Source: Candidatus Hopanoidivoransaceae bacterium | Lineage (GTDB): Bacteria > Actinomycetota > Acidimicrobiia > Acidimicrobiales > Hopanoidiivorantaceae | DNA length: 64,000 bases | Assembly (NCBI GenBank): GCA_965204495.1 | Contig: OZ241989.1 | Span: 1,184,312-1,248,311, forward strand | Direction: 5' to 3' | Shown here: positions 23,762-54,084 of the stretch, piece by piece | Position numbering within the stretch: the stretch's first letter is position 1 | Layout: the number at the start of each line of letters is the position of its first letter | The notes under the pieces: model-generated | What the model was told of the DNA's origin: nothing | Seen by the model: only the letters and a program-made list of their open reading frames with translations | Databases searched by the model: none | Made by a program: the position numbers and the translations under genes

Positions 23762-23786
23762 AATTGCAAGCGTGAAAGGAGTTTTT

Positions 23787-26424: not shown

Positions 26425-26429
26425 CTGAA

Positions 26430-26740: not shown

Positions 26741-26743
26741 GGT

Positions 26744-27073: not shown

Positions 27074-27155
27074 GGTTTATAGCATAGCGCAAGCTGGCTG
27101 TTTCCATGTTTTCCCGATGTTCCCCTCTGGGCAGGGGCAGTAAAATAGAGTCTCT

Positions 27156-28601: not shown

Positions 28602-28895
28602 GTTTGCGTTTTGGGTTTTGTAGTTGGGTGTAGCAGTCATGGCAAAAAAGTCTTTGCGTCCGCTGTCTCGGGTTTAGGTTTTGAAGCAGCAAAGGATTAC
28701 TTTTTGCCGTAGCATTTATTTTCTTCTGCGTTTCCTATCGCGTGCTCTTTGCTGAGATTTGGGCATGTATCGGCAGACAAACCCCGAAGGCGGCACATCA
28801 AACCGCCAGGCCGTTCCGCCGCTCGGTCAGCACCTTCTTCGCATCCTCGGCATCCAACCAAAACTCGTTTTTCCAAACGATGTCTCCCCAGGCAT

Positions 28896-30906: not shown

Positions 30907-31887
30907 ATGCCAAACTTTGAAATTCGCTATGACTTTCGGTGTCCGCCGGGCATTTGCCCTGTGGAGCCTGCCGATCTTTACGAGGCTGCATTGGAGCAGT
31001 GCGAGTGGGCTGAGTCGCTGGGCTTCAGCAGGGTTACCATTTCCGAGCATCACGGGGCAGACGACGGCTATCTTCCTTCGATGGTGGCTATGGGGTCGGC
31101 TATCGCGGCTCGCACTTCAAAGATGCGCATTCGGTTAGGGGCTATCATCGTTTCGCTTCACGATCCGTTGCGCCTTGCCGAAGACTTGGCGGTGCTGGAC
31201 AACATCAGCCGTGGGCGGCTGGAGGTCGTCATCGCTAACGGCTATGTGCCTTCGGAGTTCGCCATGTTTGATGTGAAGCTCTCGGATCGGGTAAAACTCG
31301 TGACCGAGGCGGTTGAAGCCATCAAAAGCGCTTGGACGGGCGAGCCGTTTGATTACAGAGGTCGCACGGTGCGGGTCACGCCCAGGCCTTGTCAAGAACC
31401 TCGCCCGCCCATAGTTCTGGGCGGCGCTTCAGAAGGGGCTGCCCGGCGAGCCGCCCGCATCGCTGACGATTTCATGCCCACGATGCCGAAATTCTGGGAT
31501 TTCTATCGCGACGAGCTTCAAAAACAAGGCAAGCCCGATCCGGGGCCGATGATGCAGGGGGCCAACATGTATCTGCATGTAACGGAAGATGCGGAGCGCA
31601 CTTGGGAGCAAATCGCCCCTCACGCCCTTCACGAGATGAACTCCTACGGGCAATGGGCTGCCGAAGCCGAGTCGGCAACGGGCTATCAACCAGTGGATGA
31701 CATAGAAATGCTGAAAGGCATAGGAATGCACAAGATTTTGACGCCTGCAGAGACGGTGGAGCTTGTGAACTCTACGCCAGATGACGGGGCCGTGCTGTTC
31801 CACCCGCTTATGGGAGGGCTAGACCCTGAGATCGCCTGGGAGAATTTGCGTTTGTTCGAGTCGGAGGTTCTGCCTCGTGTGAGGTAG
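30907..31887 (+). CDS. LLM-class (luciferase-like) flavin-dependent oxidoreductase
   Basis: 326 aa. VTISEHHGADDGYLPS...LGGASEGAARRAARIADDF is typical of this family. Confidence 0.7.
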   Translation: MPNFEIRYDFRCPPGICPVEPADLYEAALEQCEWAESLGFSRVTISEHHGADDGYLPSMVAMGSAIAARTSKMRIRLGAIIVSLHDPLRLAEDLAVLDNISRGRLEVVIANGYVPSEFAMFDVKLSDRVKLVTEAVEAIKSAWTGEPFDYRGRTVRVTPRPCQEPRPPIVLGGASEGAARRAARIADDFMPTMPKFWDFYRDELQKQGKPDPGPMMQGANMYLHVTEDAERTWEQIAPHALHEMNSYGQWAAEAESATGYQPVDDIEMLKGIGMHKILTPAETVELVNSTPDDGAVLFHPLMGGLDPEIAWENLRLFESEVLPRVR

Positions 31888-32006
31888 AGATCGCGGATTG
31901 GTTGGCGAGGGTTTGAGAGCTTTCTAGCGCAGACCTGGGTTCGCTTGGGTGCTCTGATTCAAGGGGGTAGGCTTTGAAGGAATTAGAAATTAGCAGCGGA
32001 GATTGT

Positions 32007-33242
32007 TTATTCCACCACCCCGCGCTCTGCCAAGTCGTCATAGTCGTCTCTGCCGATTTCGGCTAGGAGGGCTTTTGTGTCGCGGCCGTGATGGGGGGCA
32101 TCGGTTGCCGGGGTTGTAGGGGTGTTTTCAAATGTCGCAGGGTGGCGAGCTTGGACTACTCGCCCTGCCACAGGATGGTCGGCCTCCACGAAAAATCCTG
32201 TGGCAGCCAGCTGCTCTAGAGAAGGCACATCGCCGGGGGCCACTGCAGGGCCGGCGGGAACATCGTGGGCGTCCAGCCGGGCGCAAGCTTCGGCCACAGT
32301 TAGTTTCCTGAGAGCTTCATAGCACCGCTGCCAAGTTTCAGGAGTGATGCCCATTCGGGTTTCGGCCTCGGCTGTTTCGGCTTCGGAGGTGCCAGCCTCT
32401 CGGGCACCCGCCTCATCAGTGTCTTCGTTATTCTCTTGGGCTACTTCCAAAGCTGTGCACATTCCTGTGAACTGATCCGGCATGGCAGCCACGATATAAA
32501 TCCAGCCGTCCGAGCATTCCAAGGGTTTCACATGCGCCCCAGGGTTTGACACCTGAAATCCGTCATAGTCCGCCAAGGCTTCTCGCCCCGTTCCGTCCAC
32601 CCACAAAAAAGCCACGGACGACTGCAGCAGCGGCACATGCACAAGCTGCCCGCCGGCTCCTCTGTCTCTGGCTGCCAAGGCTGCGAGCGCGGCTTGGCTG
32701 GCGAAAAGTGCGGTGAGTTTGTCGGAGGCGGTGTGACGAAGGTTGTGGGGTTTGCCGGTTTCTTCATCGGCTTCAATCATCGCCAATCCCGAAAGTCCTT
32801 GGATTACTCCGTCATAGGCTGGTCGGTCGCTCCAAGGGCCTGCTGGCCCGTAACCCGAGATGGCTACCAAGATGATGTCTTCCTTTTGCGCTTTCAGGTC
32901 TTCGTAGCCGATGCCTAGGCGGTCGGCCACGCCGGGGCGGAAGTTTTGGAAAACGATGTCGGCGGAGCGCACGAACTCCAAAGCAATTGCCAGGCCTTCA
33001 GTGTCTTTCAAATTGACGGCAGCCGCCCGCTTGGTTCGGTTCGCAGCCAGATACGGCCCCGAAACCGAAGCAATAGACGGCCCGATGTAGCGGAGCACAT
33101 CGCCGAAGCCGAGCGGTTCGAGCTTGACCACATCGGCGCCCAAGTCGCCCAGCATTCCTGCGGCTAGCGGCCCGGCCAGAGCGGTGGAGAAATCCACCAC
33201 CCGCACACCGCTGAGCGGGCCGCCTCTGCTGGTTTGAGACAT
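32007..33242 (-). CDS. CoA-transferase family III (CaiB/BaiF type)
   Basis: GPLSGVRVVDFSTALAGPLAAGMLGDLGADVVKLEP. It contains an acidic Glu/Ala/Thr micro-repeat insert. Confidence 0.85.
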   Translation of the reverse strand: MSQTSRGGPLSGVRVVDFSTALAGPLAAGMLGDLGADVVKLEPLGFGDVLRYIGPSIASVSGPYLAANRTKRAAAVNLKDTEGLAIALEFVRSADIVFQNFRPGVADRLGIGYEDLKAQKEDIILVAISGYGPAGPWSDRPAYDGVIQGLSGLAMIEADEETGKPHNLRHTASDKLTALFASQAALAALAARDRGAGGQLVHVPLLQSSVAFLWVDGTGREALADYDGFQVSNPGAHVKPLECSDGWIYIVAAMPDQFTGMCTALEVAQENNEDTDEAGAREAGTSEAETAEAETRMGITPETWQRCYEALRKLTVAEACARLDAHDVPAGPAVAPGDVPSLEQLAATGFFVEADHPVAGRVVQARHPATFENTPTTPATDAPHHGRDTKALLAEIGRDDYDDLAERGVVE

Positions 33243-33249
33243 TTGCGGT

Positions 33250-36004: not shown

Positions 36005-37819
36005 ATGACATCAAATGCAGCAGATTCAATGTCTGAGCCGGCAGTGTCTGAGCCGGCTGTGCCGGATTCACTGGCAGTGTCGGACTCACTGTCAGTAGTG
36101 GCGTCGGAGACCGCAATGTCGCCGTCGGAAACCGCTGTCTCATTCGCAGACGAGCTCGACCCGCCCGAACTGGTGCCGGCCAGAATGCTCACGCAGTTTC
36201 TCTACTGCTCAAGGCTGTTCTATCTGGAGTGGGTGAATCAGCAATGGGACGACAATGCCCACACCGCTCAAGGCGAATATGTCCATCGGGCTGTGGACAG
36301 GATAGGCGGTGCCGCGCCGGCAGCAGACGATGACAATCCGTTTTTGGAGGCGAGGTCTCTGAAGCTGTCGTCTGAGAAGCTCGGTCTGGTGGCTGTGGTC
36401 GACTTGGTGGAAGGCAAAGGCGGCGAAGTTCATCCTGTGGATTACAAGAAAGCCAAACTGCCCGGCGATTTGGCATTGCAAACCTGGGAGTCGCACAGGG
36501 CGCAGCTTTGCGTGGCAGGGTTGCTGCTGCGAGAGGCAGGCTATGTGTGCACCAGCGGCAGCATCTACTATGCCGGCAGCAAGCGCAGGGTGGAGGTGCA
36601 TTTTGACGACGAGCTGGTAGACCAGACGATGTCGGCTCTGGAGGAACTGCGCGAAACGGCCACTCTGCCCGAAGCCCCGCCTCCGTTGGTGGACAGCCCC
36701 AAATGCCCCGACTGCTCGCTGGTGGGGATATGCCTGCCTGATGAAGTCAATCTTTTGGCAGAGATTTCCAAGCATCCGCCTCGCCGCTTGGTGCCTCGCG
36801 ATCCTCAGTCTCGCCCTGTTTATGTGGCTGAGCAGGGGGCGAGAGTGGGCAAGGCCAAAGGTCGGCTGCAAATCAAAAAAGACAGGGAAGTCATCCAAGA
36901 GGTGCGCTTGCTGGATGTCTCGCAGCTTTGTCTCTATGGCAATGTGCAGGTGTCTTCGCAGTGCGTTCGCGAGCTTTTGGGCAGGGATGTGCCGATCTGC
37001 TGGTTCAGCTTCGGCGGATGGTTCGCTGGCATGGCAACGGGTTTGCCTGCCAAGCATGTGGAGCTGCGGCGGCGACAGGTTGGCCGTTCTAGCGTGGGCA
37101 GAATGGACATCTCCAAAGCCATCGTGCGCTCCAAGATTTTGAACTCCCGCACTTTGCTGCGCAGAAATTTCAAAGGGGGCGATGAAGCTGTGCACCAGCG
37201 GACGCTGGCATCGCTCAAATATCTTGGGAAGGTGGCGGGCAGGGCTTCTACGGTCGCTGAGCTCATGGGCGTTGAGGGCGCGGCCGCACGGGATTATTTC
37301 CAAGCTTTCAACTCTATGCTCCGTGAAGAGCACGGCTTGCCCGGGCGTCCGTTTTCGTTTGAGGGGCGCAATCGCCGTCCGCCGTTGGATCCGATCAACT
37401 GTCTTTTGTCTTATTGCTATTCGCTGCTGACTAAGGAGTTGACGGTCGTGGCTCATGCTGTGGGGTTTGACCCTTACATCGGCTTTTTCCATAAGCCTCG
37501 GTTCGGGCGGCCTGCTCTGGCTTTGGATTTGGCCGAGGAGTTTCGCCCGTTGGTGGCGGATTCTGTTGTGATCACTTTGATCAACAATGACGAAATCAGA
37601 GCTTCGGATTTCGTGGTTCGCTCGGAAGGGGTTGCGCTCACCGATGCAGGCAAGAAGAAAGTCTTGGGGGCTTACGAGCGGCGTTTGGATGTGGAAATCA
37701 CCCATCCCGTGTTTGACTACAAGATCACATATCGCCGTGTTTTCGAGCTTCAAGCCCGTCTGCTGGCTGCCACGCTTTTGGACGAAGTGGCGGAATACAC
37801 GCCGTTTGCGACTCGGTGA
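36005..37819 (+). CDS. cas1: Cas4-Cas1 fusion protein (type I-G adaptation)
   Basis: N-terminal Cas4 features: LYCSRLFYLEW, DYKK, CPDCSLVGIC. The C-terminal ~330 aa is Cas1-like: VYVAEQGARVGKAKGRLQIKK...EGAAARDYF...NCLLSYCYSLL. Confidence 0.85.
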   Translation: MTSNAADSMSEPAVSEPAVPDSLAVSDSLSVVASETAMSPSETAVSFADELDPPELVPARMLTQFLYCSRLFYLEWVNQQWDDNAHTAQGEYVHRAVDRIGGAAPAADDDNPFLEARSLKLSSEKLGLVAVVDLVEGKGGEVHPVDYKKAKLPGDLALQTWESHRAQLCVAGLLLREAGYVCTSGSIYYAGSKRRVEVHFDDELVDQTMSALEELRETATLPEAPPPLVDSPKCPDCSLVGICLPDEVNLLAEISKHPPRRLVPRDPQSRPVYVAEQGARVGKAKGRLQIKKDREVIQEVRLLDVSQLCLYGNVQVSSQCVRELLGRDVPICWFSFGGWFAGMATGLPAKHVELRRRQVGRSSVGRMDISKAIVRSKILNSRTLLRRNFKGGDEAVHQRTLASLKYLGKVAGRASTVAELMGVEGAAARDYFQAFNSMLREEHGLPGRPFSFEGRNRRPPLDPINCLLSYCYSLLTKELTVVAHAVGFDPYIGFFHKPRFGRPALALDLAEEFRPLVADSVVITLINNDEIRASDFVVRSEGVALTDAGKKKVLGAYERRLDVEITHPVFDYKITYRRVFELQARLLAATLLDEVAEYTPFATR

Positions 37820-37942
37820 GACTGTCAATGAAACCCAGCTACTGCTTTAAAAGTCTGAACCGAGAACACGCGTCATTTTCAACTAGTGAAACTGTCAACT
37901 AGGTAAAACTGCCAACCCGATGAAATTCTCAATCCGCTAGCA
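37820..37942 (+). repeat. Five copies of a ~17-nt CTGTCAAC...GAAA-type unit between cas4/cas1 and the binding-protein gene
   Basis: GACTGTCAATGAAA (right after the cas4/1 stop), TTTTCAACTAGTGAAA, CTGTCAACTAGGTAAAA, CTGCCAACCCGATGAAA and TTCTCAATCCGCTAGCA. Confidence 0.6.
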
Positions 37943-37944
37943 TT

Positions 37945-39204
37945 ATGTTGATGAAATTCGTTATTTGTAAATCACTTGCTGCAGGCATAGCAATCCTGTC
38001 TGCTCTGTCGCTTTTTGCGGCTGCTTGCGGAGGCGATGATGGCAATGGCGGAGACGCGGATGCCGTGTCTGGCAGTGTCTTGAAGCTCGGCTACATCCTG
38101 CCTCAAACCGGCAGCTTGGCTTATTTGACAGATGCTATGGAAAACGGTGCGGCATTGGCAGTGGAGGAAGTCAATCGGGAGGGTATTCAAGAGATAGAGA
38201 TGGTAGCCGGCGACTCTGGCACCAATGCCGATGTAGCCAACAACACGGCCGACAGCCATATTGCCGAGGGCGTGCAGGGCATTGTCGGTGCGGGGGCATC
38301 GGCTGTTTCATTGGCAATCATCGACAAAATCACCGGCGTGGGGCTTCCGATGATCTCGCCGTCTAACACCTCTCCAGCTTTCACCGCCTATGACGACAGC
38401 GAGCTTTATTTCCGCACAATCGCTTCGGATGTGCTGCAAAGCAGGGTGATCGCCGACCTTATCGCCGAGGACGGCGCACGCCGAGTGGCCATCATGTATC
38501 GTGCCGATGCCTACGGAAAGGCTTTGGCTGACGCTTCCGAGCAAGGTCTTATCGCCAACGGCGTGGAATCCGCAGGCAAGTTCGCTTTGGATCCCGAAGG
38601 CAGCACCTTCACATCTGAGGTGCAGGAGGTTGCGGCATCGGGGGCCGATGCTGTGATTTTGATTGCGTTTCGCGAAGGCGGGCGGATCATCGCCGAGATG
38701 ATTGAGGCTGAAATCGGGCCAGGCGACATCGCTCTGTATGTGACGGCTGGTTTGGCTGTAGCCGATCTATGGGAGTTGGTCAATCCAGAAGATCGTTCGG
38801 CGGTGCAGGGAATACGAGGGACGCGCACCGGCGAGAGCGAGTCGGCTGAGCGGACTTTCAGAGATCGCTTTGCGGAATTCGCGCCTGGCGTGGATGATGC
38901 TTATGCTCCCGAAGCCTACGATGCGGTGGTGATCTATGCCTTGGCTGCTTTGGCGGCGGGAAGCAATCAGGCATCGGATTTTGCGTCTGAAATCAATGGC
39001 GTGACTCGTGGGGGCACAAAGTGCTCGCTGTATGCAGATTGCGCCGAGCTGGTGATGGCGGGTGAAGACATTGATTACGAAGGCGCGGCTGGTTCGCTGG
39101 ATTTCGTGGATGCCGGCGAGCCGAGCGTAGCGACTTTTGACATTTTGGAGTTTGATGCCGAGGGTGAAATCGTGGTGCTTTCGTCTAGGACGCTTCGGGG
39201 TTAG
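37945..39204 (+). CDS. ABC transporter substrate-binding lipoprotein (Liv/PBP1 type) located between cas4/cas1 and cas2
   Basis: Lipobox LFAAAC. LKLGYILPQTGSLAYL...GIVGAGASAVSLAI resembles branched-chain amino acid binding proteins. Confidence 0.75.
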   Translation: MLMKFVICKSLAAGIAILSALSLFAAACGGDDGNGGDADAVSGSVLKLGYILPQTGSLAYLTDAMENGAALAVEEVNREGIQEIEMVAGDSGTNADVANNTADSHIAEGVQGIVGAGASAVSLAIIDKITGVGLPMISPSNTSPAFTAYDDSELYFRTIASDVLQSRVIADLIAEDGARRVAIMYRADAYGKALADASEQGLIANGVESAGKFALDPEGSTFTSEVQEVAASGADAVILIAFREGGRIIAEMIEAEIGPGDIALYVTAGLAVADLWELVNPEDRSAVQGIRGTRTGESESAERTFRDRFAEFAPGVDDAYAPEAYDAVVIYALAALAAGSNQASDFASEINGVTRGGTKCSLYADCAELVMAGEDIDYEGAAGSLDFVDAGEPSVATFDILEFDAEGEIVVLSSRTLRG

Positions 39205-39226
39205 GATGCTTCGGGGTTAGGACGCG
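39186..39226 (+). repeat. 16-nt unit TAGGAYGCTTCGGGGT x2.5 spanning the stop codon of the binding-protein gene
   Basis: TAGGACGCTTCGGGGT (coding) TAGGATGCTTCGGGGT TAGGACGCG. The true stop TAG is at 39202-39204. Confidence 0.85.
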
Positions 39227-39389
39227 CGGCTGATTCCTGTGTTTCGTGTTTCTGTGGCATGGTCTTGGCAGCTGGTTGGGAAATTCAGTCTTGATGAACT
39301 TCACGCTTGTTCGCAGCACTCTTTCTGGTGTCTCGCCGGGTTTGAAAGTCTGATTGGCAAGCCTGTGCGGTTCTGAGTGAGGGAGATAT

Positions 39390-39686
39390 ATGAGTCGGAA
39401 TACCTATCTGGTCGCCTACGACATTTGCGGCGATGAAAAGCGTTTGCGGAAAATCCACCAATGCATGTGCGGGTATGGCTACTCTCTGCAATACTCGGTG
39501 TTCTTGTGCTCGCTGGATCAGGTTGAGCTGATCGACCTGAAGATGGATGTGAGCGAAATCATGAACCACAGAGACGACAGCGTAATGATCGTGTCACTAG
39601 GCCCCTCAGAAACGGCGGTGGAAAGTCATTTTGAATTCATGGGAGTCACCCCACCGAAATTTGACGAGGGAGCGGTCATCGTCTAG
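39390..39686 (+). CDS. cas2: Cas2
   Basis: 98 aa, YLVAYDICGDEKRLRKIHQCMCGYGYSLQYSVFLC. GAGGGA RBS. Immediately upstream of the leader and array. Confidence 0.85.
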   Translation: MSRNTYLVAYDICGDEKRLRKIHQCMCGYGYSLQYSVFLCSLDQVELIDLKMDVSEIMNHRDDSVMIVSLGPSETAVESHFEFMGVTPPKFDEGAVIV

Positions 39687-39968
39687 TTGGTTGCGCTGGT
39701 GGCGGTTGTCCGAGCATCTACAGCAGACAAAAAGATTCGCAGTCGATTCTGAAATAGCAAAGATATTTCTTGAGGGGGATGGGGGGTTCGAGGGGTTCCT
39801 GCGAGAGGTCGTGTGGCAACACCATCCCCAGCCACCTCTCGTGCCCTGCTACAATAACCCCAAAGAGGGGCATCCGAACCTTGGCAATCTATTCCCCAAA
39901 CAAAAAATCCCCACCCACTCGCAATCGGCCAATTCTCCCCAAGCCAATTGCGCCCAACAAAGTGAGTG
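39687..39968 (+). promoter_or_regulatory. CRISPR leader with candidate extended -10 TGCTACAAT at 39847-39855
   Basis: Non-coding stretch between cas2 and the first repeat. TGCTACAAT lies ~113 nt before repeat 1. The ORFs listed here are repeat or leader artefacts. Confidence 0.55.
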
Positions 39969-42363
39969 CTATCGGGGGGCAGTCCGCCCCCCCTTCATTG
40001 AAGCTGAGAAACTACATGATGAGCTTCGGGGAGGCTTATCTATCGGGGGGCAGTCCGCCCCCCCTTCATTGAAGCAGACCGCCTGATTACTTGCATCGTC
40101 ATTCTGAACCCCCTATCGGGGGGCAGTCCGCCCCCCCTTCATTGAAGCTCGCCGTGGTCTGTCGTCTCTACATGGACTGGCACTCTATCGGGGGGCAGTC
40201 CGCCCCCCCTTCATTGAAGCGCTTGACAATATGCGAACGCTGGAGGCGCACATCCTATCGGGGGGCAGTCCGCCCCCCCTTCATTGAAGCCACTCGGTTG
40301 AGAGATGAGACTGGTGCGGAGGCTTTCTATCGGGGGGCAGTCCGCCCCCCCTTCATTGAAGCTCAGCCATACAAACAGCCTAGCAGATAAGTTCCCTCTA
40401 TCGGGGGGCAGTCCGCCCCCCCTTCATTGAAGCCGCATGTCTTGGGCTGGTCGTTGATGACCCTGATTGCTATCGGGGGGCAGTCCGCCCCCCCTTCATT
40501 GAAGCAGGAACACGCCGAGCGCAGTAGCAGCGATGAAGCCCCTATCGGGGGGCAGTCCGCCCCCCCTTCATTGAAGCGAAGAATATGAGATGAGGTCTCT
40601 GCTGGATGGCTCCCTATCGGGGGGCAGTCCGCCCCCCCTTCATTGAAGCCGCTCTTGCGCTGTGCGCATCAGCGAGTTGAGCGTGCTATCGGGGGGCAGT
40701 CCGCCCCCCCTTCATTGAAGCAGCGGCATCTACACCACCAGCCAAGCCAAACCCTGCTATCGGGGGGCAGTCCGCCCCCCCTTCATTGAAGCTAGCTGGC
40801 AGCTATCAGCCTGCCCGCAACCTTCTGCTATCGGGGGGCAGTCCGCCCCCCCTTCATTGAAGCCTGGCAGAGCAAGGAGTTGCCAGACATGCATGCTGCT
40901 ATCGGGGGGCAGTCCGCCCCCCCTTCATTGAAGCGGCAGCGATGGCTGACGGCATCGCCTGCCTCGGCAGCTATCGGGGGGCAGTCCGCCCCCCCTTCAT
41001 TGAAGCTCGTGGATTGCTGATCCTATTGTTGCTAGCACGAGCTATCGGGGGGCAGTCCGCCCCCCCTTCATTGAAGCATTCAGTGTCGGCACAGAAAAAG
41101 TCGCAAGTTCGGCTATCGGGGGGCAGTCCGCCCCCCCTTCATTGAAGCTCTGGTGAAGAAGCCAGCGATACCACCATCTTCAACTATCGGGGGGCAGTCC
41201 GCCCCCCCTTCATTGAAGCCGCAGCGTCTTCTTCACTTGAGCGTCCGATAGGTATCTATCGGGGGGCAGTCCGCCCCCCCTTCATTGAAGCGGCTGGGGA
41301 CACCTCCACAGCGCAACAGCCTCTATCTATCGGGGGGCAGTCCGCCCCCCCTTCATTGAAGCATCAGGACACCTTTGCCATTGCCTCCATCGCCGTCTAT
41401 CGGGGGGCAGTCCGCCCCCCCTTCATTGAAGCAAGACCCTGAGAGTTTTGAATCTGAGAGGTTTTTACTATCGGGGGGCAGTCCGCCCCCCCTTCATTGA
41501 AGCTTATCAGGCAGGCTTCACGGGGCAGCTAGCCCCGTCTATCGGGGGGCAGTCCGCCCCCCCTTCATTGAAGCAGAGTGAAACAAGCTAGTTCCATTTT
41601 GGCACGAAAACTATCGGGGGGCAGTCCGCCCCCCCTTCATTGAAGCGGACTTGTTAAATGCGGATGATGAGCTTGTGGCGGCCTATCGGGGGGCAGTCCG
41701 CCCCCCCTTCATTGAAGCTGGCGGTCTCTCATCCCGCCGCAAGCCATAAACGAACTATCGGGGGGCAGTCCGCCCCCCCTTCATTGAAGTCTGCGCCTTT
41801 GTAGCCTGTGCCTGCCACGACAGACCTATCGGGGGGCAGTCCGCCCCCCCTTCATTGAAGTGATATTGTGTCATTCTCAGTCTCGTGTTTGTGGTGGCTA
41901 TCGGGGGGCAGTCCGCCCCCCCTTCATTGAAGTTCTACCAGTTCTGAGGTTATTTTGGTGACGGCTGACTATCGGGGGGCAGTCCGCCCCCCCTTCATTG
42001 AAGTTTGGCAATACTTTGAGGCTCTGCCCGCTCAGGTGGACTATCGGGGGGCAGTCCGCCCCCCCTTCATTGAAGTGCCTATCTGGGTAGCGTTCGTATG
42101 AGTCACCTGCGCCTATCGGGGGGCAGTCCGCCCCCCCTTCATTGAAGTGCAGTCCACGCGATCACTCCAATAGTGATTCCTATGCTATCGGGGGGCAGTC
42201 CGCCCCCCCTTCATTGAAGTGCTTCACACGCACTAGCAGCCTACGCCCGACTCACCTATCGGGGGGCAGTCCGCCCCCCCTTCATTGAAGTTATTCCATC
42301 TCCACCTGATACAAAAGCCCAGAGCGCCTATCGGGGGGCAGTCCGCCCCCCCTTCATTGAAGC
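39969..42363 (+). CRISPR. CRISPR array: 34 repeats of 36 nt and 33 spacers of 34-37 nt
   Basis: The repeat is CTATCGGGGGGCAGTCCGCCCCCCCTTCATTGAAGC. It contains a 7-bp stem GGGGGGC/GCCCCCC with a 5-nt loop, followed by an 11-nt tail ending ATTGAAGC. I located every repeat start by hand from 39969 to 42328. Repeats 26-33 end in T instead of C. Confidence 0.97.
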
Positions 42364-42391
42364 GGGGGGTAGGCGATTTTTGGCTGGTGTT

Positions 42392-44062
42392 TTAGAAATC
42401 TAGGTCTGGGGCGGGTTCTAGTTGTCCTGCTGACAGGGGGGTTTCTGCTTCGCTTTCTGTGAGGAACACCACGTCGCCGTCTATGAATTGTGGTCGTAGG
42501 GGGTCTTTTCTGTGATACAAATTGCAGGGCTCTAGCACTCTGTAATTTTTGCCCTTGGTCACACCGCCTCTCAAAATCATCTCTTGGACTGATTGAGCGT
42601 TCACAGCCAGCAAGAAAACAGCCAATGGCAATTCACCGATGCCTAGAGGGTGATGTTCGGGGCGAACCACAGGGCTGCGTGGTGTCACCATGTATGAGTT
42701 TCCCCTGAATTTTTCTTTCTCTTCTACAAGTTTTTTTAATCCCTTCAGATGATGATCCTTTGAGTTTCCTACTTCAAACGCCAAGGGATCCTCTGTCTCT
42801 CCGCCGAAAATGAAATCTACCTCATATGTTTCTCTTAGGCGCCAATATTCCAGAGTCATCCAACTGTTCTCTGCCAGCTCTTTTAATGCCGCTCCCGCCG
42901 CATTTTCCAGCACATGGCCTTTCTTTGGGAGATCTTCCAGCCCTGATGTCCCCATTCTCCTAACGGCCGAAGGAACGGCTGGGTCAAAGAAGCAGTATTT
43001 CTGGTTGCCAGCCTTCCGCATCGGTGCGTCGGAATAGGCGTCTAGTCGGAAGAGAATGTTCGCATTCTCCAAATGGGAGAGATATGTGCTTGTTGTTTTT
43101 CCCTGAGCTTCGCCCAGCTGTTTGCCAATCTTGGCAACTGTGGTCTGCTTGCCGAGCAGACCCGCGACAGAATGCATTACGGCCTCAAGAGTTTTCCGAT
43201 CTCTGACATCATGGAAGGCAACTATGTCTTTGTCAACCGCCCTGCCTACTACCTCTTTGAGGTATCCATGATCCCGTCTGACCGCTGCTCTGAGGCTCGG
43301 GTTATGCGTGGAATGGTCATATCCAGTGATGCACACGGGGTATCCGCCTGTGATGAGGTATCTGTCCAGAGCAGTCGCTACCTGCTCGGGAACGGGCGAG
43401 ACCTGCGGGATTGATTGAAGCCGTGCTCGCAAAGATGGATATCCTGTTCTGCACCATTTTGGAATGATGCTGGCATCGCCGAAAACAAATTCGCACCATT
43501 CCATGAAATTGCAAGCCATCAAGCGATATTCTGCCCAGCGGTCTGGGCCGCTTTCTGGTTTGCGCTTGTCGTTATTGGCAAGGATCATCCCAGAACTGGA
43601 AGACGCTAAAACTCTGATGGGTCTGTTTTGAGCGAGAAGATTTTTTAGCCACAGGTCCCAGTCGTCGCTTGCTCCTATCTCGTCCAAGAACAGAAAAATC
43701 GGCTCATCGATGCTGGCATCGGGGCACAGCAGCAACAAGGCATCTGCTATCGCCCCTAGATTTTCCATCTGAAGCTCCGGGTGATCCAGTTCCACGAAAA
43801 AGATGCGCTCTCTGGGTATTCCCTTGTCTAGCAAGCTGTCAATAGACTGCCAAAGCAGCGTGGTTTTGCCAGACCTGCGGGGGCCCAGCACAAGATGGTA
43901 GCATCGCGGGTCGTCTCGGATGAGGGTGTCGGGCAGAACTCGCATCATGTGCCTGTGCTTGGGCAGGGATTTCTCCGTCAGCTCGGACGAGTCTGTTTTC
44001 CACCCGTTCTGATCCTCGAGTATTTCTTGGAAGCGGGGTATGTCTATGTATTGAAATGCCAT
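42392..44062 (-). CDS. AAA+ ATPase of the COG1373 type (AAA_14 plus DUF4143-like), second copy
   Basis: Walker A GPRRSGKTT and Walker B FLFLDEIGASDDW. The track start is 44098; ATG 44062 (MAFQYIDI) has GGAGG 7 nt upstream. AT-richer than the array and the cas4/1 region. Confidence 0.75.
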   Translation of the reverse strand: MAFQYIDIPRFQEILEDQNGWKTDSSELTEKSLPKHRHMMRVLPDTLIRDDPRCYHLVLGPRRSGKTTLLWQSIDSLLDKGIPRERIFFVELDHPELQMENLGAIADALLLLCPDASIDEPIFLFLDEIGASDDWDLWLKNLLAQNRPIRVLASSSSGMILANNDKRKPESGPDRWAEYRLMACNFMEWCEFVFGDASIIPKWCRTGYPSLRARLQSIPQVSPVPEQVATALDRYLITGGYPVCITGYDHSTHNPSLRAAVRRDHGYLKEVVGRAVDKDIVAFHDVRDRKTLEAVMHSVAGLLGKQTTVAKIGKQLGEAQGKTTSTYLSHLENANILFRLDAYSDAPMRKAGNQKYCFFDPAVPSAVRRMGTSGLEDLPKKGHVLENAAGAALKELAENSWMTLEYWRLRETYEVDFIFGGETEDPLAFEVGNSKDHHLKGLKKLVEEKEKFRGNSYMVTPRSPVVRPEHHPLGIGELPLAVFLLAVNAQSVQEMILRGGVTKGKNYRVLEPCNLYHRKDPLRPQFIDGDVVFLTESEAETPLSAGQLEPAPDLDF

Positions 44063-44411
44063 CGTTCTACCTCCGTTATCTGAATTATGTATCTGCATTA
44101 TACATGTTTTTCAGTTATATGACAACCTATTTTGTTGATGATTTTGCCATATATTGGAGATTGATAGCATTTTCTAGGATTTTAAGGCTTATAGAACTGG
44201 AAATCTTGGAATATCTAGAATATAGATATCCAAATTCCAAGAAGCTAGATTTGTCCATCACAGACGGAATTAGCTTGCCTAATTCGCTTCTGCTATGTTT
44301 GTGCCGGCGCAGGCGAGTGAAGTGGTCGGCGTGTCAGTGATTGTGCCGTATGTGACCTGCCGAGAGCACGGCATCGATTATCTCTGCGGTTAGTGCTTTC
44401 ACCGCGCCGGC

Positions 44412-44447
44412 TTTCGGGGGGCGGTCCGCCTACCTTAATTTGAAGCT
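44412..44447 (+). repeat. Degenerate CRISPR repeat (28/36 identical to the array repeat)
   Basis: CTTTCGGGGGGCGGTCCGCCTACCTTAATTTGAAGC versus CTATCGGGGGGCAGTCCGCCCCCCCTTCATTGAAGC. A weaker repeat-like stretch begins 72 nt later (~44484-44523). Confidence 0.75.
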
Positions 44448-44495
44448 GGTTTGGCTGCTACTACCGCAGGGCTACTGGATCTGTTTCTGGGGTAG

Positions 44496-44729
44496 TCAAC
44501 TGCTCCCTTCCCCAATTTGGCCTTCCACTTGGTCATTGAGCAGATCCATTTTGGATTTGACTTCGTGGTTCCAGCAAGAGTAGCGCCTCATTCTGAGCGT
44601 GATTGTCTCTTCGGAGCGATCAGGGTCTGGTTTAACGCAATCAATTTCCGACGTGACAAACATGATGCTCAAGATGACGATGAGTAGGAAAAGGATGGTG
44701 GATGAAATGCTTACAACGAGTTTGAACAT
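44496..44729 (-). CDS. Small membrane protein (77 aa), hypothetical
   Basis: N-terminal hydrophobic helix MFKLVVSISSTILFLLIVILSIMFV, with AAGAAAGG upstream. Its 3' end overlaps repeat-like sequence, so it is uncertain. Confidence 0.35.
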   Translation of the reverse strand: MFKLVVSISSTILFLLIVILSIMFVTSEIDCVKPDPDRSEETITLRMRRYSCWNHEVKSKMDLLNDQVEGQIGEGSS

Positions 44730-44863
44730 GATAGTGCCTTTCTTGTGATGGTTGGATTAGGGGATCTTGGTGTTTGTCGAAGTGTTGTCGCACCCGCTGC
44801 GGTCAATCCGCTAATTGCGGTGCGACTTCTTTGCCCATGAACAATGGCTGCCAACATGTCGGG

Positions 44864-44991
44864 GCGGTGATGGTGATGTGTCGCAACCCACCTTGTTTCT
44901 CGAGCGGGCCGCAGGTGCAGTCGGCTACTGGTGCTGCGCGGTGATGGCGATGTGTCGCTACCTACCCTTCGGGGGGGGGGGCGATTTGAAG
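44864..44991 (+). repeat. ~32-nt direct repeat pair (period 74) ending in a G11 tract plus GATTTGAAGT (CRISPR-repeat-like 3' end)
   Basis: GCGGTGATGGTGATGTGTCGCAACCCACCTT at 44864 and GCGGTGATGGCGATGTGTCGCTACCTACCCTT at 44938, followed by C-G11-CGATTTGAAGT. CTTAAATTGAAGC occurs at ~45058-45070. Confidence 0.6.
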
Positions 44992-45090
44992 TGACAAGGC
45001 GGGATTAGTTTGGATTAATTCATTCTAGTTAATTTTGGGAGGGTTCGTCAAGCTTGTCTTAAATTGAAGCCAGATGGTTTGCGCTGAGAA

Positions 45091-45198
45091 GTTGCTATAT
45101 TCTATCAAAATCTGGTGTGGGGCAAATTACAAGTCATCGCCGTTGTCGGCCGAAATAAGATGTTGCTATATTCTATCAAAATTCGGTATGGCGCATAT
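45091..45198 (+). repeat. AT-rich 37-nt direct repeat pair with 71-nt period (two-repeat mini-array-like)
   Basis: GTTGCTATATTCTATCAAAATCTGGTGTGGGGCAAAT at 45091 and GTTGCTATATTCTATCAAAATTCGGTATGGCGCATAT at 45162. They are 32/37 identical and the first 21 nt are perfect. Confidence 0.7.
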
Positions 45199-45222
45199 AA
45201 GAGCTCCTTTGTGCCCCAGCTC

Positions 45223-46659
45223 TTAGTGGGCTGTTTCTACGGCATTGGAGATGCCAGTTCGCGGGAACGAAGGGGACCCCGTTTCGAGGGCTCTTTTTCT
45301 TCCTTTTGCTCTAGGTGTTTTAAGCTGTTTCTTGAAAAAAATGTCTGCTAGGTCGCAGTATATGGTTTCTATACTTGAATACATCTCTATCAATTCTCCA
45401 AATTCTTCATCAATTTTCGCGAGTTCTTCCATTTTTGAAATTAGAGACTTAATGCTAGAGCAGATGCTTTGAATAATTTGAAAACACTCTTCCATAAGTT
45501 CTTCATCAGTTGTTGATTGAACTAGGAACACCATGCTGTTATTTCGCATGTTGAGTTTCACAAAGCTGGGCTCATCCAAATCTTCATTTTCAAAGAGATT
45601 GATGTCTTGACAAATATCTGAGAAAGCCAAAGTTTCTATAATAAAATCTACGATGCCACTTAATATTTCAGCAGATTGACAAATAAATGTTCCAGTATTT
45701 TCTAAAGTATCCGACTCATCGAGAAATAAATCGGATCCATTGCCAACATAATTTTCTGTAAACCAAGTTGGGAAGTTGTCTAATCTAGTTTGCAAATTTG
45801 CAATTTGCAAGCAAAAATTGTCATATTCATCTACGCATTCTTCCAATGACTCAAGAACTTGATCAAATTCGCCTTGTGTCGGCCTAATATCGCTCAGACG
45901 AAAGTTTGCTTGATTCCACGAAAATTCAATAGAGAATATTCCCCCAAAATCTTCTATGTTCCAGATTTCAGAGCAGCGTTCCAAAGCTTCTTGAGCATAA
46001 TTCAAGAATTGCGATGAATCAGAAGCGAAGCACATTATTTGTCTTATATCAGACCAAAGAGAACTGAAGTACGCTACTTCTGCCTCACTAAGTTGTGTTT
46101 GCAAAATAGTGAAGTTGTCGCAGACTTTACTAAATTCTGGTGAGCACTCAGATACCACAATATTAGTTTCTATACCATCTGCACAAGTTTTTGTTGTTTC
46201 AATATACTCCAGTAGTGCCTTGTTGACCTCAGATGATAAATCAACAGGCAGAGTTTCTAACTCATCAGACAACTGGGTGATTTGCTGTTGGGTCAGCCAT
46301 TCGGGAGCAGGCGAATTGCGGGCCTCTGGCGAGAGCAGAGATAGCAAAAATTTGATGAGCTGGGTGTCTGGATCATCTGGTGCTGATTCATCTCCTGATA
46401 ATTGGGATGCCCTTTCTGCGAGGATATCTTCTGCTGTAGGTGTCTCGCTAGGAAGTGTCGGAGTGTTAGAAGTCGAAGTTGCTGGGGACGTGGTGGTGCT
46501 TGAAACGGCAGAGGTGCTTGGTTGCGTGGTAGGCGAAGAAGGAGCAGATTGGTTTTCGGTTGCTACAGGCTTGGAGGCATCCGCGCATCCAGCCAAGAGC
46601 AGACAGACTGCCAGCACACCCAAGACAGAACGACTCAGCGATGGAAGGGTGGAAGGCAC
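45223..46659 (-). CDS. Acidic Cys-rich lipoprotein (478 aa), function unknown
   Basis: Lipobox LLLAGC and a Ser/Thr/Pro linker, then repeated E.C-x7-10-C helical-looking segments (ECSPEFSKVC, ERCSEIW, EECVDEYDNFC, EECFQIIQSIC). Markedly AT-rich. Confidence 0.65.
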   Translation of the reverse strand: MPSTLPSLSRSVLGVLAVCLLLAGCADASKPVATENQSAPSSPTTQPSTSAVSSTTTSPATSTSNTPTLPSETPTAEDILAERASQLSGDESAPDDPDTQLIKFLLSLLSPEARNSPAPEWLTQQQITQLSDELETLPVDLSSEVNKALLEYIETTKTCADGIETNIVVSECSPEFSKVCDNFTILQTQLSEAEVAYFSSLWSDIRQIMCFASDSSQFLNYAQEALERCSEIWNIEDFGGIFSIEFSWNQANFRLSDIRPTQGEFDQVLESLEECVDEYDNFCLQIANLQTRLDNFPTWFTENYVGNGSDLFLDESDTLENTGTFICQSAEILSGIVDFIIETLAFSDICQDINLFENEDLDEPSFVKLNMRNNSMVFLVQSTTDEELMEECFQIIQSICSSIKSLISKMEELAKIDEEFGELIEMYSSIETIYCDLADIFFKKQLKTPRAKGRKRALETGSPSFPRTGISNAVETAH

Positions 46660-46789
46660 GAATTGTCAGGTTAGTCGGAGCGCGCCATCTTTGAGCGGGA
46701 CTACTTTCTGAGCACAAAATGAAGGGGCGACACATCTGTGCAGCCCTTCATGAGCATTTGCGCAGATTTGATGGTCTGCGGGGGTGGTG

Positions 46790-47212
46790 TCAGGCTGCCA
46801 CTTTTACTTCCACTTGGCGGGGTGCTTCGGGCACTACCAGCGGGACGGTGACAGTCAGCACGCCGAATTTGCTTTCGGCTGAGGGTTGGGCTGAGTCGGC
46901 GTCTTCGGGGAGACGGATGCGGAACTCTGCGTTGTCGCTGGTTCCCCATGCTCCTACCGGGACGAAATTCTTGGGCTCTTCGTCTGCGGAGTCGTTTTCG
47001 TGCTTCTCGTCTGTGATGGCCACGAGAAGTTGGTGATCAGCGATGCTGACTGCGATCCTTGCTGGATCAACGCCTGGGAGGGCGAAACGATACTCCAGCC
47101 TGTCTGGGAAGCGGGTGGCCGATGGCCGGGGCAGCTCCCTTCGGGCTGTGAGAACCCCATTGGATGGGGACTTGAAGAAGATGTCGAAAAGGTCATCCAT
47201 TTGCCTGAGCAT
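46790..47212 (-). CDS. Hsp20/alpha-crystallin family small heat-shock protein
   Basis: The track ORF extends to 47287. ATG 47212 (MLRQMDDLFD) has AAAGGA ~9 nt upstream. ACD-like C-terminus AEFRIRLPEDAD...KFGVLTVTVP. Confidence 0.8.
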   Translation of the reverse strand: MLRQMDDLFDIFFKSPSNGVLTARRELPRPSATRFPDRLEYRFALPGVDPARIAVSIADHQLLVAITDEKHENDSADEEPKNFVPVGAWGTSDNAEFRIRLPEDADSAQPSAESKFGVLTVTVPLVVPEAPRQVEVKVAA

Positions 47213-47293
47213 TGTTCTATCCTTTCTGTTCGGTGCTTTGCTCTTAAAGCTGTACAACGCAAACAGGGAGGGATTTATTCCAAGCATTTGGAA

Positions 47294-47310
47294 GCGGAAT
47301 TCAATTCCGC
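47294..47310. promoter_or_regulatory. Perfect 17-nt palindrome GCGGAATTCAATTCCGC upstream of hsp20 (candidate operator)
   Basis: 8-bp arms around a single central base. The loop is too short for an RNA hairpin, so a dimeric DNA-binding site is more likely. It lies between the cas8u-like stop and the hsp20 start. Confidence 0.4.
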
Positions 47311-47362
47311 GAAAATGTGATGACAGTCCTGGATCACAGGGCTTCAGACAAAAAAGATAGCA

Positions 47363-48294
47363 CTAATTGCTATTGGCTGTCCGCCAGATTATTTGGGGTG
47401 GACTGAAGGTGCCATAGCCACCTTGATCTGAGCGCAGTATCTGCGATTGCAGAATTCGGGATATTCCCCATGATGGATAGAAGTGGCTACGATTTTCTGG
47501 TGTTAAGCTGGTGGCTTGTGCGAGGAGGGCAATCACGGTTCCAAATCCTGCGGGGCGAATCCAAAGAGGCCAAGTATATTTTCCCTGTTTCCAACCACCT
47601 GAGCAACCAAGTGTTAAGGTTCTCTTGCCGTCTTGCCTTGAAAATACTGGATGTCTGCTAAACCCTAAAATTGCTAGAGCTTCGGGACCAGGATTTGTGT
47701 ATTTGTCGGTAGTGGATGGGTTGGAGGCTGATAAGGCGTAAACACGGTCGTCAACTATATCCCACATTAATGATTCTTTTTTGCTTTGATATGGCCAAGG
47801 GCCAATAAGACCTTCGGTTATATCGTCTTCAGTTGCGGAAGTAAGAATTTCTTGTGCCATGCTAAGAAATTTTTGTTGGCCTGCTGTGAAGTAGAGATCG
47901 TTTGGTTTGGCTATATTATTGTTGTCATAGCTTCCTTCGGCTATCAATGCTGTGGCAAATTCGCTACCAATTTGTCCAACTGACGACATGAGGTATTCTC
48001 TAACCGTTTCATCAGAGAACTTGGCTTTTTCTTTTTCTGCTTTTGTCCCAAGCTTTGGAGCCAGAGCAGGGCTTTTTGCCCATTTGGGGAAGACTGCCAT
48101 TGCTTGATCTACTATTTTTTCCACTGGGTAAGCCTCGCTGACGATGGCATGGGGGATGACATCGTTTGACCACCAGAGCTTGGGTTGGTCGGGCTCGTCG
48201 GCGAAGAGGACTTGGACACCTAGGGCGGCAAAGAAGCCTAGGGGGTTGGTGCCGTCTAGTCCGGTCAGGTGAATGCCTTCGTATGCTTGGGTCA

Positions 48295-48295
<1 letters not shown>
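47363..48295 (-). CDS. Short Cas8u-family (Csb3/Csx17-like) putative large subunit
   Basis: The ATG at 48295 overlaps the cas3 TGA. The N-terminal LTGLDGTNPLGFFAALGVQVLFADE resembles the PLG..LKALGV..L motif I recall at Csx17/Cas8u N-termini. Last gene of the effector operon. Confidence 0.5.
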
Positions 48296-52777
<4,482 letters not shown>

Positions 52778-52780
52778 GGC

Positions 52781-54013
52781 TTACTCCGCTTCTGGCTTTT
52801 CGGTTTTGGCTGCTTTTCGGCTTTTCGCCAATAGCTCAATCAGCTTCGGGGAGGGTTCTAGCCGTATCTCGGATGTCTCCCAGCCGATGCCAGCCTTTTC
52901 CGCCTCCTCAGCAGCCCGCTTCAGAATGTCGGATGCGACCGATCTGTTGATGTCCACAACAGTGGGGGCTGAGCCATCCCGTGCTACAAGTTCCAAAGTT
53001 TGGGTTTCAGTCGGAATCAGAAGACATCTGGAGCGAAGGTCGTAGTCGTGCTCATATAGATAAGCGGCGGCTGCTACGCCGAGTGCTGCGATGGCGGTCT
53101 GAGCCGCCGCTTCTTTGGCGCGGTCGCGTCCTCCGAAACGAAGCTTCCTCAAGGCTGCTAGCGAAATCACAGTAGTTTGGACTGCCCCTGAGATGGTCAC
53201 GCCGCCCGACAGAGAATCTATAGAGGGTGCGATGTTGCCGTGGTTGATTTCTGAGGGTCTGCCTATGACTTTGGGCTTGCCTTTTTCTTTGGCAGCTTCG
53301 TCTTCGTTGACGGTCCAGACTTGGGCAGGGTCTGCATGCTCGTAGATGAGATCTTCGGCTGACAATTTTTCAATCGCGAGAGGATCCAGCCGGCTGCCTA
53401 CTTTCTTGCCGACCTGCACATCCAAGCCGATGATCTCTGAGACATAGGCTCGCTGGAATTTCGACCCCAACCCGCCCTTCGGCCCTGTGCTGTCCCAAAC
53501 TCCGAACAGCAGGGCTGTGGGCGAATACCGATATAGGGCGGTGGCGTCTCGTGGGGTGGCGTTGGTTATCTGCTGTCCGACATCAGACAGGCGGAACAGA
53601 GTGCCGTCCAGCAGGCTGTCGCGGAAGATGGCATCGGCTATCCTGTGCGGAGCTTCAAGGGCTGTGAGCTTGCCGATTTCGCTCAAGTCTTCCTCGTCGC
53701 TCTTGGCATCTGAAAAATCCACATATGGAACGGGAAACGCTAGATCGCCGTCCAGCCAGCCTTCCAGCAGGGCTTCTTCGGCTCGGTTGGCCTGAGACGC
53801 TACCGAGTCCAACAGCACGGTTTCCACTTCTTTGTCGTTGATTTGGCGCGTCTCCACAGCGTATTTGTGGTCGGCTCGGCCGTCAACGGCGTATGAGGGC
53901 GGAAACACCTTGTCTTCGGTTCCGCCAGCAGGTGCCAGCGACAGACGAGACCGCAAAGCTACGGCACCTCCCGCTGTGGCTTCTGAAAGCTGTTCAAAAG
54001 TGAGTTCGGTCAT
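52781..54013 (-). CDS. csb1: Csb1 (Cas7u, type I-G)
   Basis: The track start 54073 is TTG. ATG 54013 (MTELTFEQL) has AAGGAG 7 nt upstream. LAPAGGTEDKVFPPSYA...VLLDSVASQANRAEEAL matches my memory of Csb1. Confidence 0.8.
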   Translation of the reverse strand: MTELTFEQLSEATAGGAVALRSRLSLAPAGGTEDKVFPPSYAVDGRADHKYAVETRQINDKEVETVLLDSVASQANRAEEALLEGWLDGDLAFPVPYVDFSDAKSDEEDLSEIGKLTALEAPHRIADAIFRDSLLDGTLFRLSDVGQQITNATPRDATALYRYSPTALLFGVWDSTGPKGGLGSKFQRAYVSEIIGLDVQVGKKVGSRLDPLAIEKLSAEDLIYEHADPAQVWTVNEDEAAKEKGKPKVIGRPSEINHGNIAPSIDSLSGGVTISGAVQTTVISLAALRKLRFGGRDRAKEAAAQTAIAALGVAAAAYLYEHDYDLRSRCLLIPTETQTLELVARDGSAPTVVDINRSVASDILKRAAEEAEKAGIGWETSEIRLEPSPKLIELLAKSRKAAKTEKPEAE

Positions 54014-54084
54014 GATTTTCTCCTTGATGGCTTGTCTGTGTTTTGGGTGTTCTGCTGTTGGGTAGGGTGTCAAATCGCAATTGC

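Follow-up and report, generated by a model that had tools for sequence, protein, structure and literature searches.

We studied the end of a clustered regularly interspaced short palindromic repeat (CRISPR) array, and the ATPase gene adjoining it, in a stretch of 64,000 nucleotides (nt) from contig OZ241989.1, hereafter the window. The locus encodes a CRISPR-Cas system of type I-G (formerly I-U) and belongs to an uncultured Acidimicrobiales bacterium from a sponge metagenome. The block carrying the ATPase gene has the working array on one side and, on the other, the old terminal repeat, with its trailer, at which the array formerly ended. Quite probably, a self-contained gene of the PDC-S01 type entered the array in its distal part and has been kept there by selection, and the repeats that it cut off decayed.

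The ATPase cassette and the former end of the array

The active array occupies 39969-42363 on the plus strand and contains 34 repeats of 36 nt (CTATCGGGGGGCAGTCCGCCCCCCCTTCATTGAAGC). Its terminal repeat (42328-42363) is intact: it matches the consensus perfectly and has a C at position 36. It is followed by a junction of 28 nt, GGGGGGTAGGCGATTTTTGGCTGGTGTT (42364-42391), which leads to the stop codon of the ATPase gene. The gene itself, on the minus strand at 42392-44062, codes for 556 amino acids (aa) and has a GGAGG ribosome-binding site 7 nt before its ATG. On the same strand, its 5' region of 193 nt (44063-44255) is AT-rich and contains a near-consensus predicted promoter, TTGTCA-17-TATAAT at 44125-44097 (11 of 12 consensus positions). 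Between this cassette and a relic repeat, R1 (CTTTCGGGGGGCGGTCCGCCTACCTTAATTTGAAGC, 44411-44446, plus strand), there are 155 nt of ordinary GC content (56%; 44256-44410). R1 is identical to the array repeat at 28 of 36 positions.

A preliminary description of this DNA had placed a single minus-strand gene between the last intact repeat, ending at 42363, and a decayed repeat on the same strand as the array. Both are borne out, the repeat lying one base to the left of 44412-44447, where it had been located. The description had also found the region visibly AT-richer than its surroundings. This holds for the 193 nt upstream of the gene, with 31% GC, but the difference is only moderate for the coding sequence, where the GC content is 51% compared with 60% in the array, 58% in cas4/1 and 56% in the window. 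No known RNA family was found by Rfam in 42364-47500.

Relatives were collected by look-ups of exact proteins and by a genome scan based on Cas4/1 in the metagenome assemblies of ENA (European Nucleotide Archive). They form a population of about 20 contigs, at roughly 90-100% nucleotide identity, to which a sister species can be added: L009 (OY282367.1, an uncultured Acidimicrobiales chromosome), syntenic at about 80%. Five architectures are seen between cas8g and the array. Type A (the window, L001 and L002/L039) has, in this order, an HSP20 gene, a lipoprotein gene, the small open reading frame (ORF) orf77, R1, the ATPase and the array. Type B (11 contigs) has 226 nt, the ATPase and the array, and type C (four contigs) has HSP20, about 365 nt, the ATPase and the array. 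The remaining two are without the ATPase. Type E (L038) has HSP20, 237 nt and the array, while type D (L009) has a fragmented lipoprotein gene, a partial relic, 636 nt with ORFs, a relic repeat, 912 nt with ORFs and the array.

Type C corresponds to type A minus 44326-46712, and type B to type A minus 44256 to about 47363. These extents indicate that B and C are deletion derivatives of A in which the ATPase and its promoter were spared. The region 44063-44255 is 86-93% conserved in all ATPase-bearing strains, and the homology to B-type strains ends at 44255. The following 155 nt are missing from B-type strains and are common to C-type strains up to about 44325-44340. In 19 of the 20 contigs of the population the ATPase is found 28-31 nt from the terminal repeat, and the junction GGGGGGTAGGCGATTTTTGGCTGGTGTT is conserved in all contigs that carry the gene.

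The exception is L038, whose array is uninterrupted, with 49 contiguous repeats and no ATPase. Its intact terminal repeat is directly followed by the homologue of window 45063-45116 (83%) and 45155-45296 (76%), and then by the HSP20 flank; the homology to 45063-45296 begins within the last 7 nt of that repeat. Since the L038 array runs straight into the trailer, the segment 45035-45070 of the window (TTTTGGGAGGGTTCGTCAAGCTTGTCTTAAATTGAAGC, plus strand) is identified as the decayed old terminal repeat, and consequently 42364 to about 45034 lies inside the former array. The ancestral trailer follows at 45071-45222 on the plus strand and is homologous to L038 14144-14296 and partly to L009, where a partial relic (18445-18480) sits beside the same trailer as 45035-45070. 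The junction GGGGGGTAGGCGATTTTTGGCTGGTGTT is absent after the L038 terminal repeat and must therefore belong to the inserted block. The former interior of the array now holds the ATPase cassette, the 155 nt, R1, orf77 and two suggestive units at 44859-44993.

An array with contiguous repeats and no ATPase is what the preliminary description had proposed to look for in relatives, and L038, from the same population, fits and supports insertion. That description had left two options: a cassette inserted into the old end of the array, or a trailer that decayed around the gene. The comparison with L038 and L009 places the cassette within the former array; however, no signature of insertion is seen at the junctions.

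How well are the relics themselves recognised? For R1 the 28 of 36 identities compare with a background best of 21 of 36 (122,840 positions on both strands), and its gapped semi-global score is 44 compared with 30 for the best background match. R1 has T3 and G13, where the working repeats of the window have A at both positions. The L009 repeat, GTTTCGGGGGGCGGTCAGCC, also has T3 and G13, and L019-type strains share T3, which fits an older unit of the same array. R1 is present only in A-type strains. It keeps a near-intact 3' handle (TTTGAAGC), and its folding energy is -9.3 kcal/mol (z = -0.1), compared with -17.5 kcal/mol for the canonical repeat with its 7-bp stem. This hairpin is the form that the Cas5/6 fusion would process, and its destruction makes R1 a dead relic rather than a working repeat.

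In searches for more relic repeats with an nhmmer profile and gapped scans, only R1 was significant. The two decayed repeat-like units at 44859-44993 (plus strand, about 65 nt apart) read TCGGGGCGGT...TCGCAACCCACCTT... and GCGCGGT...TCGCTACCTACCCTTC...ATTTGAAGT. They are only suggestive of array units: the one at about 44953-44993 aligns locally to R1 with a score of 24, where the 99.9th percentile of the background is 23, and neither gives a significant nhmmer match. The terminal relic 45035-45070, taken alone, is weakly repeat-like; it shares with R1 a TTAA where working repeats have TTCA.

The trailer contains a 71-nt tandem duplication (45085-45226; GTTGCTATATTCTATCAAAAT... at 45092 and 45163). 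L038 has a single copy of this unit, in a version, ATCTATTGAAGT, that resembles the 3' end of a repeat. As the period of 71 nt equals one repeat-spacer unit, the trailer itself may be a very old decayed array. Elsewhere in the window, 20488-20518 on the plus strand (TTCGGGGGGCGGTTCGCATCCTTCGGTGAAG, nhmmer E = 0.06) was considered as a relic repeat and rejected as a chance resemblance: it lies within a conserved gene of the HTH_67 family and is itself 94% conserved in L009.

The course of events that we favour would begin in the ancestor of the population, where a single-gene cassette of 1.9 kb would have entered the array among its oldest, distal units. The cassette would have brought its own strong predicted promoter, the GGAGG site and the 556-aa ATPase, and it may have been tolerated because it lay beyond all spacers currently used. 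Cut off from renewal at the leader end, the repeats beyond it would have decayed, and all that is left of them would be R1 (at 44411), one or two units that can hardly be recognised and the former terminal repeat (at 45035), followed by the original trailer. Most strains later lost the relics and adjoining genes through independent deletions, all of which left the ATPase in place.

The relics could instead be remnants of a second array or of the rearrangement by which the adaptation module was inverted, so that the ATPase merely occupies a gap and was never inside an array. Most of the DNA that separates R1 from the terminal relic indeed does not look like an array, and the region is an inversion junction when compared with the canonical order cas8g-cas4/1-cas2-array. 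However, the relics are oriented as the active array, there is no second leader, and the repeat states of R1 are intermediate between lineages, as expected of an older unit of the same array. Given also that the single uninterrupted array of L038 ends exactly at the trailer that follows the terminal relic in the window, we regard a separate origin of the relics as very unlikely.

The preliminary description had further noted a weaker repeat exactly 72 nt after R1. This one does not hold up: the best match within +/-3 nt is 16 of 36, which 1.2% of the background reaches, and nhmmer finds none. It bears on the idea that R1, 36 nt and the weak unit form a degenerate mini-array of the CreA/CreR kind, guiding Cascade to repress, for example, orf77. 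Degenerate mini-arrays of CreTA/CreR reportedly adjoin cas operons (Li et al. 2021; Liu et al. 2023). Here too a degenerate repeat is found close to a cas operon and beside a small hydrophobic ORF, the spacing of the units fits, and the 3' handle of R1 is near-intact. What differs is that there is no credible second repeat, the unit being at chance level, that the R1 hairpin is lost, and that the spacer-like 36 nt have only chance-level matches in the window, the best of 11 nt and inside a coding region. Moreover, the whole segment is deleted in most strains. The mini-array was rejected on the second unit, the lack of a convincing target and the lost hairpin, and we consider it extremely improbable. 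The ORF in question, orf77 (44496-44729, minus strand), is a putative gene of 77 codons with a hydrophobic N-terminus and without family match, seen only in the near-identical A-type strains.

The ATPase: selection, family and homologues

The ATPase is strongly conserved. Its ratio of non-synonymous to synonymous substitution rates (dN/dS) is 0.02-0.05, and the window and L003 differ by 22 synonymous and no non-synonymous changes. The synonymous rate (dS) is in step with those of cas7g, cas4/1 and the binding-protein gene between cas4/1 and cas2, which indicates vertical descent. Taken together, these substitution patterns indicate that the gene is functional, vertically inherited and under strong purifying selection, with no sign of recent mobility. 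During the same time the working array has turned over completely while the terminal repeat, the junction and the ATPase stayed: no spacers are common to different strains, except for near-identical contigs, and still 42328-42363 is the terminal unit adjoining the ATPase in all A- and B-type strains.

This does not agree with a mobile gene that repeatedly lands in the genome, as the preliminary description had suggested, since every carrier has it in the same place, with the same 28-nt junction, and its dS follows that of its neighbours. A polymorphism for presence or absence of the ATPase block does exist (L038, L009). Nor were the insertion signatures found that it had proposed to look for at the junctions: the cassette carries the ATPase as its only gene, with neither a transposase nor an integrase, and no candidate for a terminal inverted repeat or a duplicated target site is convincing. 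The only inverted repeat spanning the boundaries (13 of 17 nt) is one of 31 similar pairs in 2.2 kb, and the window contains no tRNA genes.

Three other origins were tried and rejected. As for a mobile element targeted by CRISPR, none of the 293 unique spacers from nine arrays match outside arrays in the DNA compared. As for a phage or plasmid, close relatives of the ATPase are absent from the collections of phages, plasmids and viral contigs, where the matches are only distant ones (23-27% identity) from 18 plasmids, a single fragment labelled as phage and a single viral contig. The array repeat is found on no viral contig. Recent horizontal transfer was considered for L003, where the cassette is 98% identical and the cas3/cas8g flank 81%; however, the low value of the flank reflects a divergent cas8g allele, and the dS of the ATPase matches that of its other neighbours.

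The protein consists of an Orc/Cdc6-like AAA+ domain (AAA_14), a winged helix, a DUF4143 domain (PD-(D/E)xK-like) and a small beta-rich extension at the C-terminus. Its identification as a COG1373-type ATPase with DUF4143 was confirmed with hidden Markov models: AAA_14 (PF13173) scores 69.1 bits at residues 57-189 and DUF4143 (PF13635) 75.1 bits at residues 278-431, both far above the Pfam gathering cut-offs of 27 and 28.1, respectively. In PADLOC all seven PDC-S01 models match (best E = 9.4e-33, residues 56-431), in line with the earlier suggestion of a family of the defence-island type. PDC-S01, an ATPase fused to a PD-(D/E)xK domain, is very common (PMC12988326), and DUF4143 has been classed as PD-(D/E)xK (PMC3424549). 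From these matches and the predicted fold we infer that the ATPase is not a Cas protein but a member of COG1373/PDC-S01.

As in other members of this family, the two-domain architecture is kept, the Walker A (GPRRSGKT) and Walker B (DE) motifs are intact, being invariant among 22 aligned homologues, and so are the PD-(D/E)xK-like acidic residues E414, D416 and E430. Also as in most members, the gene is solitary, with a promoter of its own and in low-GC DNA. Two features set the protein apart. The canonical lysine of the PD-(D/E)xK motif is Gly or Ala in the whole clade (FEVG or FEIG), and the C-terminal extension of about 65 aa occurs only in the window ATPase and its three closest relatives. 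That the C-terminus or the 28-nt junction is read-through of the old array was considered and rejected, since the extension is shared with homologues away from arrays.

An AlphaFold2 model of the ATPase has a pLDDT (predicted local distance difference test) of 87.6 and a pTM (predicted template modelling score) of 0.91, and with Foldseek it matches Orc/Cdc6-type proteins with AAA+ and winged-helix domains. The predicted AAA+ core, lid and winged helix match those of Orc4 and archaeal Orc1/Cdc6 (E 3e-6 to 1e-5, probability 1.0). However, the identity is 10-16%, the whole-chain TM-scores are 0.2-0.4, and the initiators have no PD-(D/E)xK-like C-terminal domain; nothing suggests a role in replication. 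A separate model of the C-terminal part (residues 371-556) has a pLDDT of 90, and its best matches in PDB are the PD-(D/E)xK nucleases VC1899, Bax1, SfsA, McrC and Cap4, all weak (E >= 0.03). On account of its family membership and predicted fold, the protein most likely acts alone, as a switch driven by nucleoside triphosphates that binds DNA and carries a nuclease-like domain, i.e. it would be a stand-alone candidate defence gene.

Outside the population, identity drops to 43% in the nearest homologues. An enrichment of homologues near CRISPR arrays, raised as a possibility in the preliminary description, was not found: none of five neighbourhoods (32-43% identity) contains cas genes or arrays. 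These neighbourhoods consist of housekeeping genes, one of them with an adjoining MNT/HEPN-like pair. The closest homologues sit among suf and other housekeeping genes, including that of Ca. Hopanoidivorans, whose related I-G system is on another contig. The association of the ATPase with an array is thus confined to one population.

These observations also bear on whether the type I-G system of this lineage has the ATPase as an accessory component, which would act at the array end or with Cascade/Cas3 and be kept for that function. In 19 of 20 contigs the conserved 28-nt junction alone separates it from the terminal repeat, in spite of the complete turnover of spacers and two independent upstream deletions that spared it. 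Further, in type B, the commonest architecture, it comes right after cas8g in the same orientation, with a dN/dS no higher than those of cas4/1 and cas7g. On the other hand, it has its own strong predicted promoter and AT-rich 5' region, L038 and L009 keep an apparently complete I-G system without it, its closest homologues have no cas genes or arrays around them, and the family is widespread as a solitary gene (PMC12988326). We find such a function unlikely, and prefer to see the ATPase as an unrelated gene in the tail of the array.

A second, divergent copy of the same family at 13.1-15.4 kb had been taken as a sign of repeated landing. The copy exists: 13081-15395 on the minus strand is a two-gene operon with 46% GC, formed by a paralogous ATPase with AAA_14 and DUF4143 domains and a 276-aa gene. 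The paralogue (13908-15395, ATG start, 495 aa) is the first gene, and its stop overlaps the start of the 276-aa gene, which has no family match. However, it is not a second landing: the two ATPases are only 25% identical, the operon is a different one, and in three other contigs the pair keeps its place, flanked by a thiolase gene and by ABC-transporter genes. The second copy represents the same broad family, acquired independently and long ago.

Mode of entry and weight of the evidence

The equivalent region of L009 contains other cargo. This syntenic genome has no ATPase; its main array ends at 16860 and is followed by 912 nt with ORFs. Between the array and the relic repeats (16861-18444) there are four small ORFs of 88, 116, 90 and 103 aa, two of which have Cys-rich motifs resembling zinc ribbons and none of which has a family match. 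The 88-aa ORF ends within the last intact repeat.

It is conceivable that cargo entered through the repeats, either by homologous recombination with foreign DNA bearing such repeats or as a 'giant spacer' integrated by Cas1-Cas2. Different ORF-bearing segments abut repeats on both sides (2047 nt in the window, 912 and 636 nt in L009), the block missing in L038 has a repeat at each boundary, and the end of the 88-aa ORF inside a repeat fits as well. However, no viral contig carries the repeat and no spacer matches the cargo; further, insertion anywhere in a distal spacer would look alike after decay. The distal position is equally well explained by selection against cutting off active spacers. 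In addition, Cas1-Cas2 integrates at the leader end, which speaks against this route, and a distant I-G relative, L013, has no such cargo. Entry by way of the repeats is in our judgement improbable. Because the ATPase cassette and the unrelated small-ORF segments of L009 each lie flush between repeats, one may speculate further that the leader-distal repeats are a landing pad for exchanging gene-sized cargo, with the tail resembling a small integron, an idea to which we attach little weight.

Several points weigh against a simple insertion of a defence gene into the array. First, the insertion was deduced from comparison and not from the junctions. L038 may have lost the block rather than never had it, and L009 could also have lost or replaced the ATPase. 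The housekeeping flanks of L038 nest within the population, and its cas4/1 is about 10% divergent from all others. Trees of flanking genes did not polarise the L038 allele, as the segments conflict, which points to recombination. Second, only R1 is statistically firm on its own; the assignment of the terminal relic draws on positional orthology and about 50% identity. Third, neither the 155 nt that separate the cassette from R1 nor the 412 nt from R1 to the next repeat-like unit are recognisably derived from an array, so the history must include more than one simple insertion. As for function, the replaced motif lysine together with the weak structural matches makes nuclease activity uncertain, and PDC-S01, the fourth most common defence candidate in prokaryotes, is experimentally unvalidated (PMC12988326).

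Neither the gene family nor this type of event is new, and no new kind of system is revealed. CRISPR arrays interrupted by inserted DNA, such as insertion sequences, have been described, as have arrays with degenerate terminal repeats. As in those, here non-spacer DNA lies between repeats, the repeats beyond it have decayed and the insertion is leader-distal. The difference is that the cargo is a single gene, stably inherited and selected, without transposase, inverted repeats or target duplication, and that the sister species has other ORF cargo at the equivalent place. The value of the locus is an unusually complete comparative picture, with a hint that array tails in this lineage accumulate cargo. 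At the population level it offers alleles with and without the gene, deletion derivatives, relic repeats and an identifiable ancestral trailer. It illustrates how an unrelated gene under selection can persist for long in the disused end of a CRISPR array, during which time the part in use is completely renewed. Genes adjoining arrays are consequently not necessarily CRISPR-associated, and relic repeats can show how far an array once reached. It also adds a strongly constrained and well-modelled member to PDC-S01, which is among the commonest candidate defence families.

The type I-G locus and its variable genes

The adaptation module lies on the plus strand. It starts with the cas4/cas1 fusion (36005-37819) and includes cas2 (39390-39686), whose product matches CRISPR_Cas2 of Pfam and occurs, according to a look-up of the exact protein, on 22 contigs. 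Between the two there is a gene for a periplasmic solute-binding protein (Peripla_BP_6, 37945-39204, plus strand). Its position is kept in all contigs of the population and in L009 (79% nucleotide identity), with a dN/dS of 0.05-0.07. Neither Ca. Hopanoidivorans (L012) nor the more distant I-G loci have the gene. The leader spans 282 nt on the plus strand, from cas2 to the first repeat (39687-39968), and is 92-100% conserved among strains. The array is transcribed on the plus strand, as the leader adjoins cas2, the repeat has a 3' ATTGAAGC handle, an ending also seen in related I-G arrays that run in the same direction as their cas genes, and the array has weak matches to Rfam CRISPR-DR16 on this strand. 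The last base of the repeat shifts in blocks, both along an array and from one array to another (compared with L002, L017, L018, L019 and L009): in the window there are 25 repeats with C, eight with T and then one with C, and other strains have G or A. In all A- and B-type strains, C is retained in the terminal repeat that adjoins the ATPase.

The effector operon is on the minus strand and consists of cas7g (52781-54073), cas5/6g (51131-52777), cas3g (48295-51144) and cas8g (47363-48355). In distant I-G systems the order is cas7-cas5/6-cas3-cas8-cas4/1-cas2-array, all on one strand. A metagenome scan with Cas8g recovered only such distant systems (50-54% identity), with the canonical gene order; the relatives L011, L013, L022 and L023 have this order in comparison with window 36005-54073. 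The adaptation module and array are thus inverted relative to the effector operon, and the old array end therefore faces cas8g. All variable genes have accumulated at this junction of array tail and cas8g.

Two such genes, both on the minus strand, lie between the trailer and cas8g. The HSP20 family gene (46790-47212), between the lipoprotein gene and cas8g, is found in architectures A, C and E and is absent from B and L009. The predicted lipoprotein gene (45223-46659; 466-478 aa) is AT-rich, with 42% GC. Its product has a signal peptide with a LAGC lipobox, a linker rich in Ser, Thr and Pro and an acidic C-terminal domain, and it has no family match. The L009 homologue is split into two ORFs, and the gene is deleted in architectures B, C and E.

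Within the population cas8g itself occurs as two alleles with a nucleotide identity of about 73% (dS about 1.0, dN/dS 0.22), and the neighbouring cas3g and cas7g are 91-97% identical, which suggests either allele exchange or diversifying pressure on the large subunit. The comparison covered the window and L003, L019-21, L034, L035, L040 and L041. In L042 the effector region is rearranged (15787-18261): a 497-aa gene and a shortened Cas7g of 324 aa follow HSP20, and no match to cas8g or cas3g was found within its locus.

Compared with L009 the window contains extra DNA at 23503-28893 (about 5.4 kb) and at 31887-33248 (about 1.4 kb), the latter including a gene of CoA-transferase family III. Finally, tandem repeats of 17-30 nt (CTAGTGATCTTCTGGGG and relatives) occupy 20680-20845, just upstream of the HTH_67-family gene.

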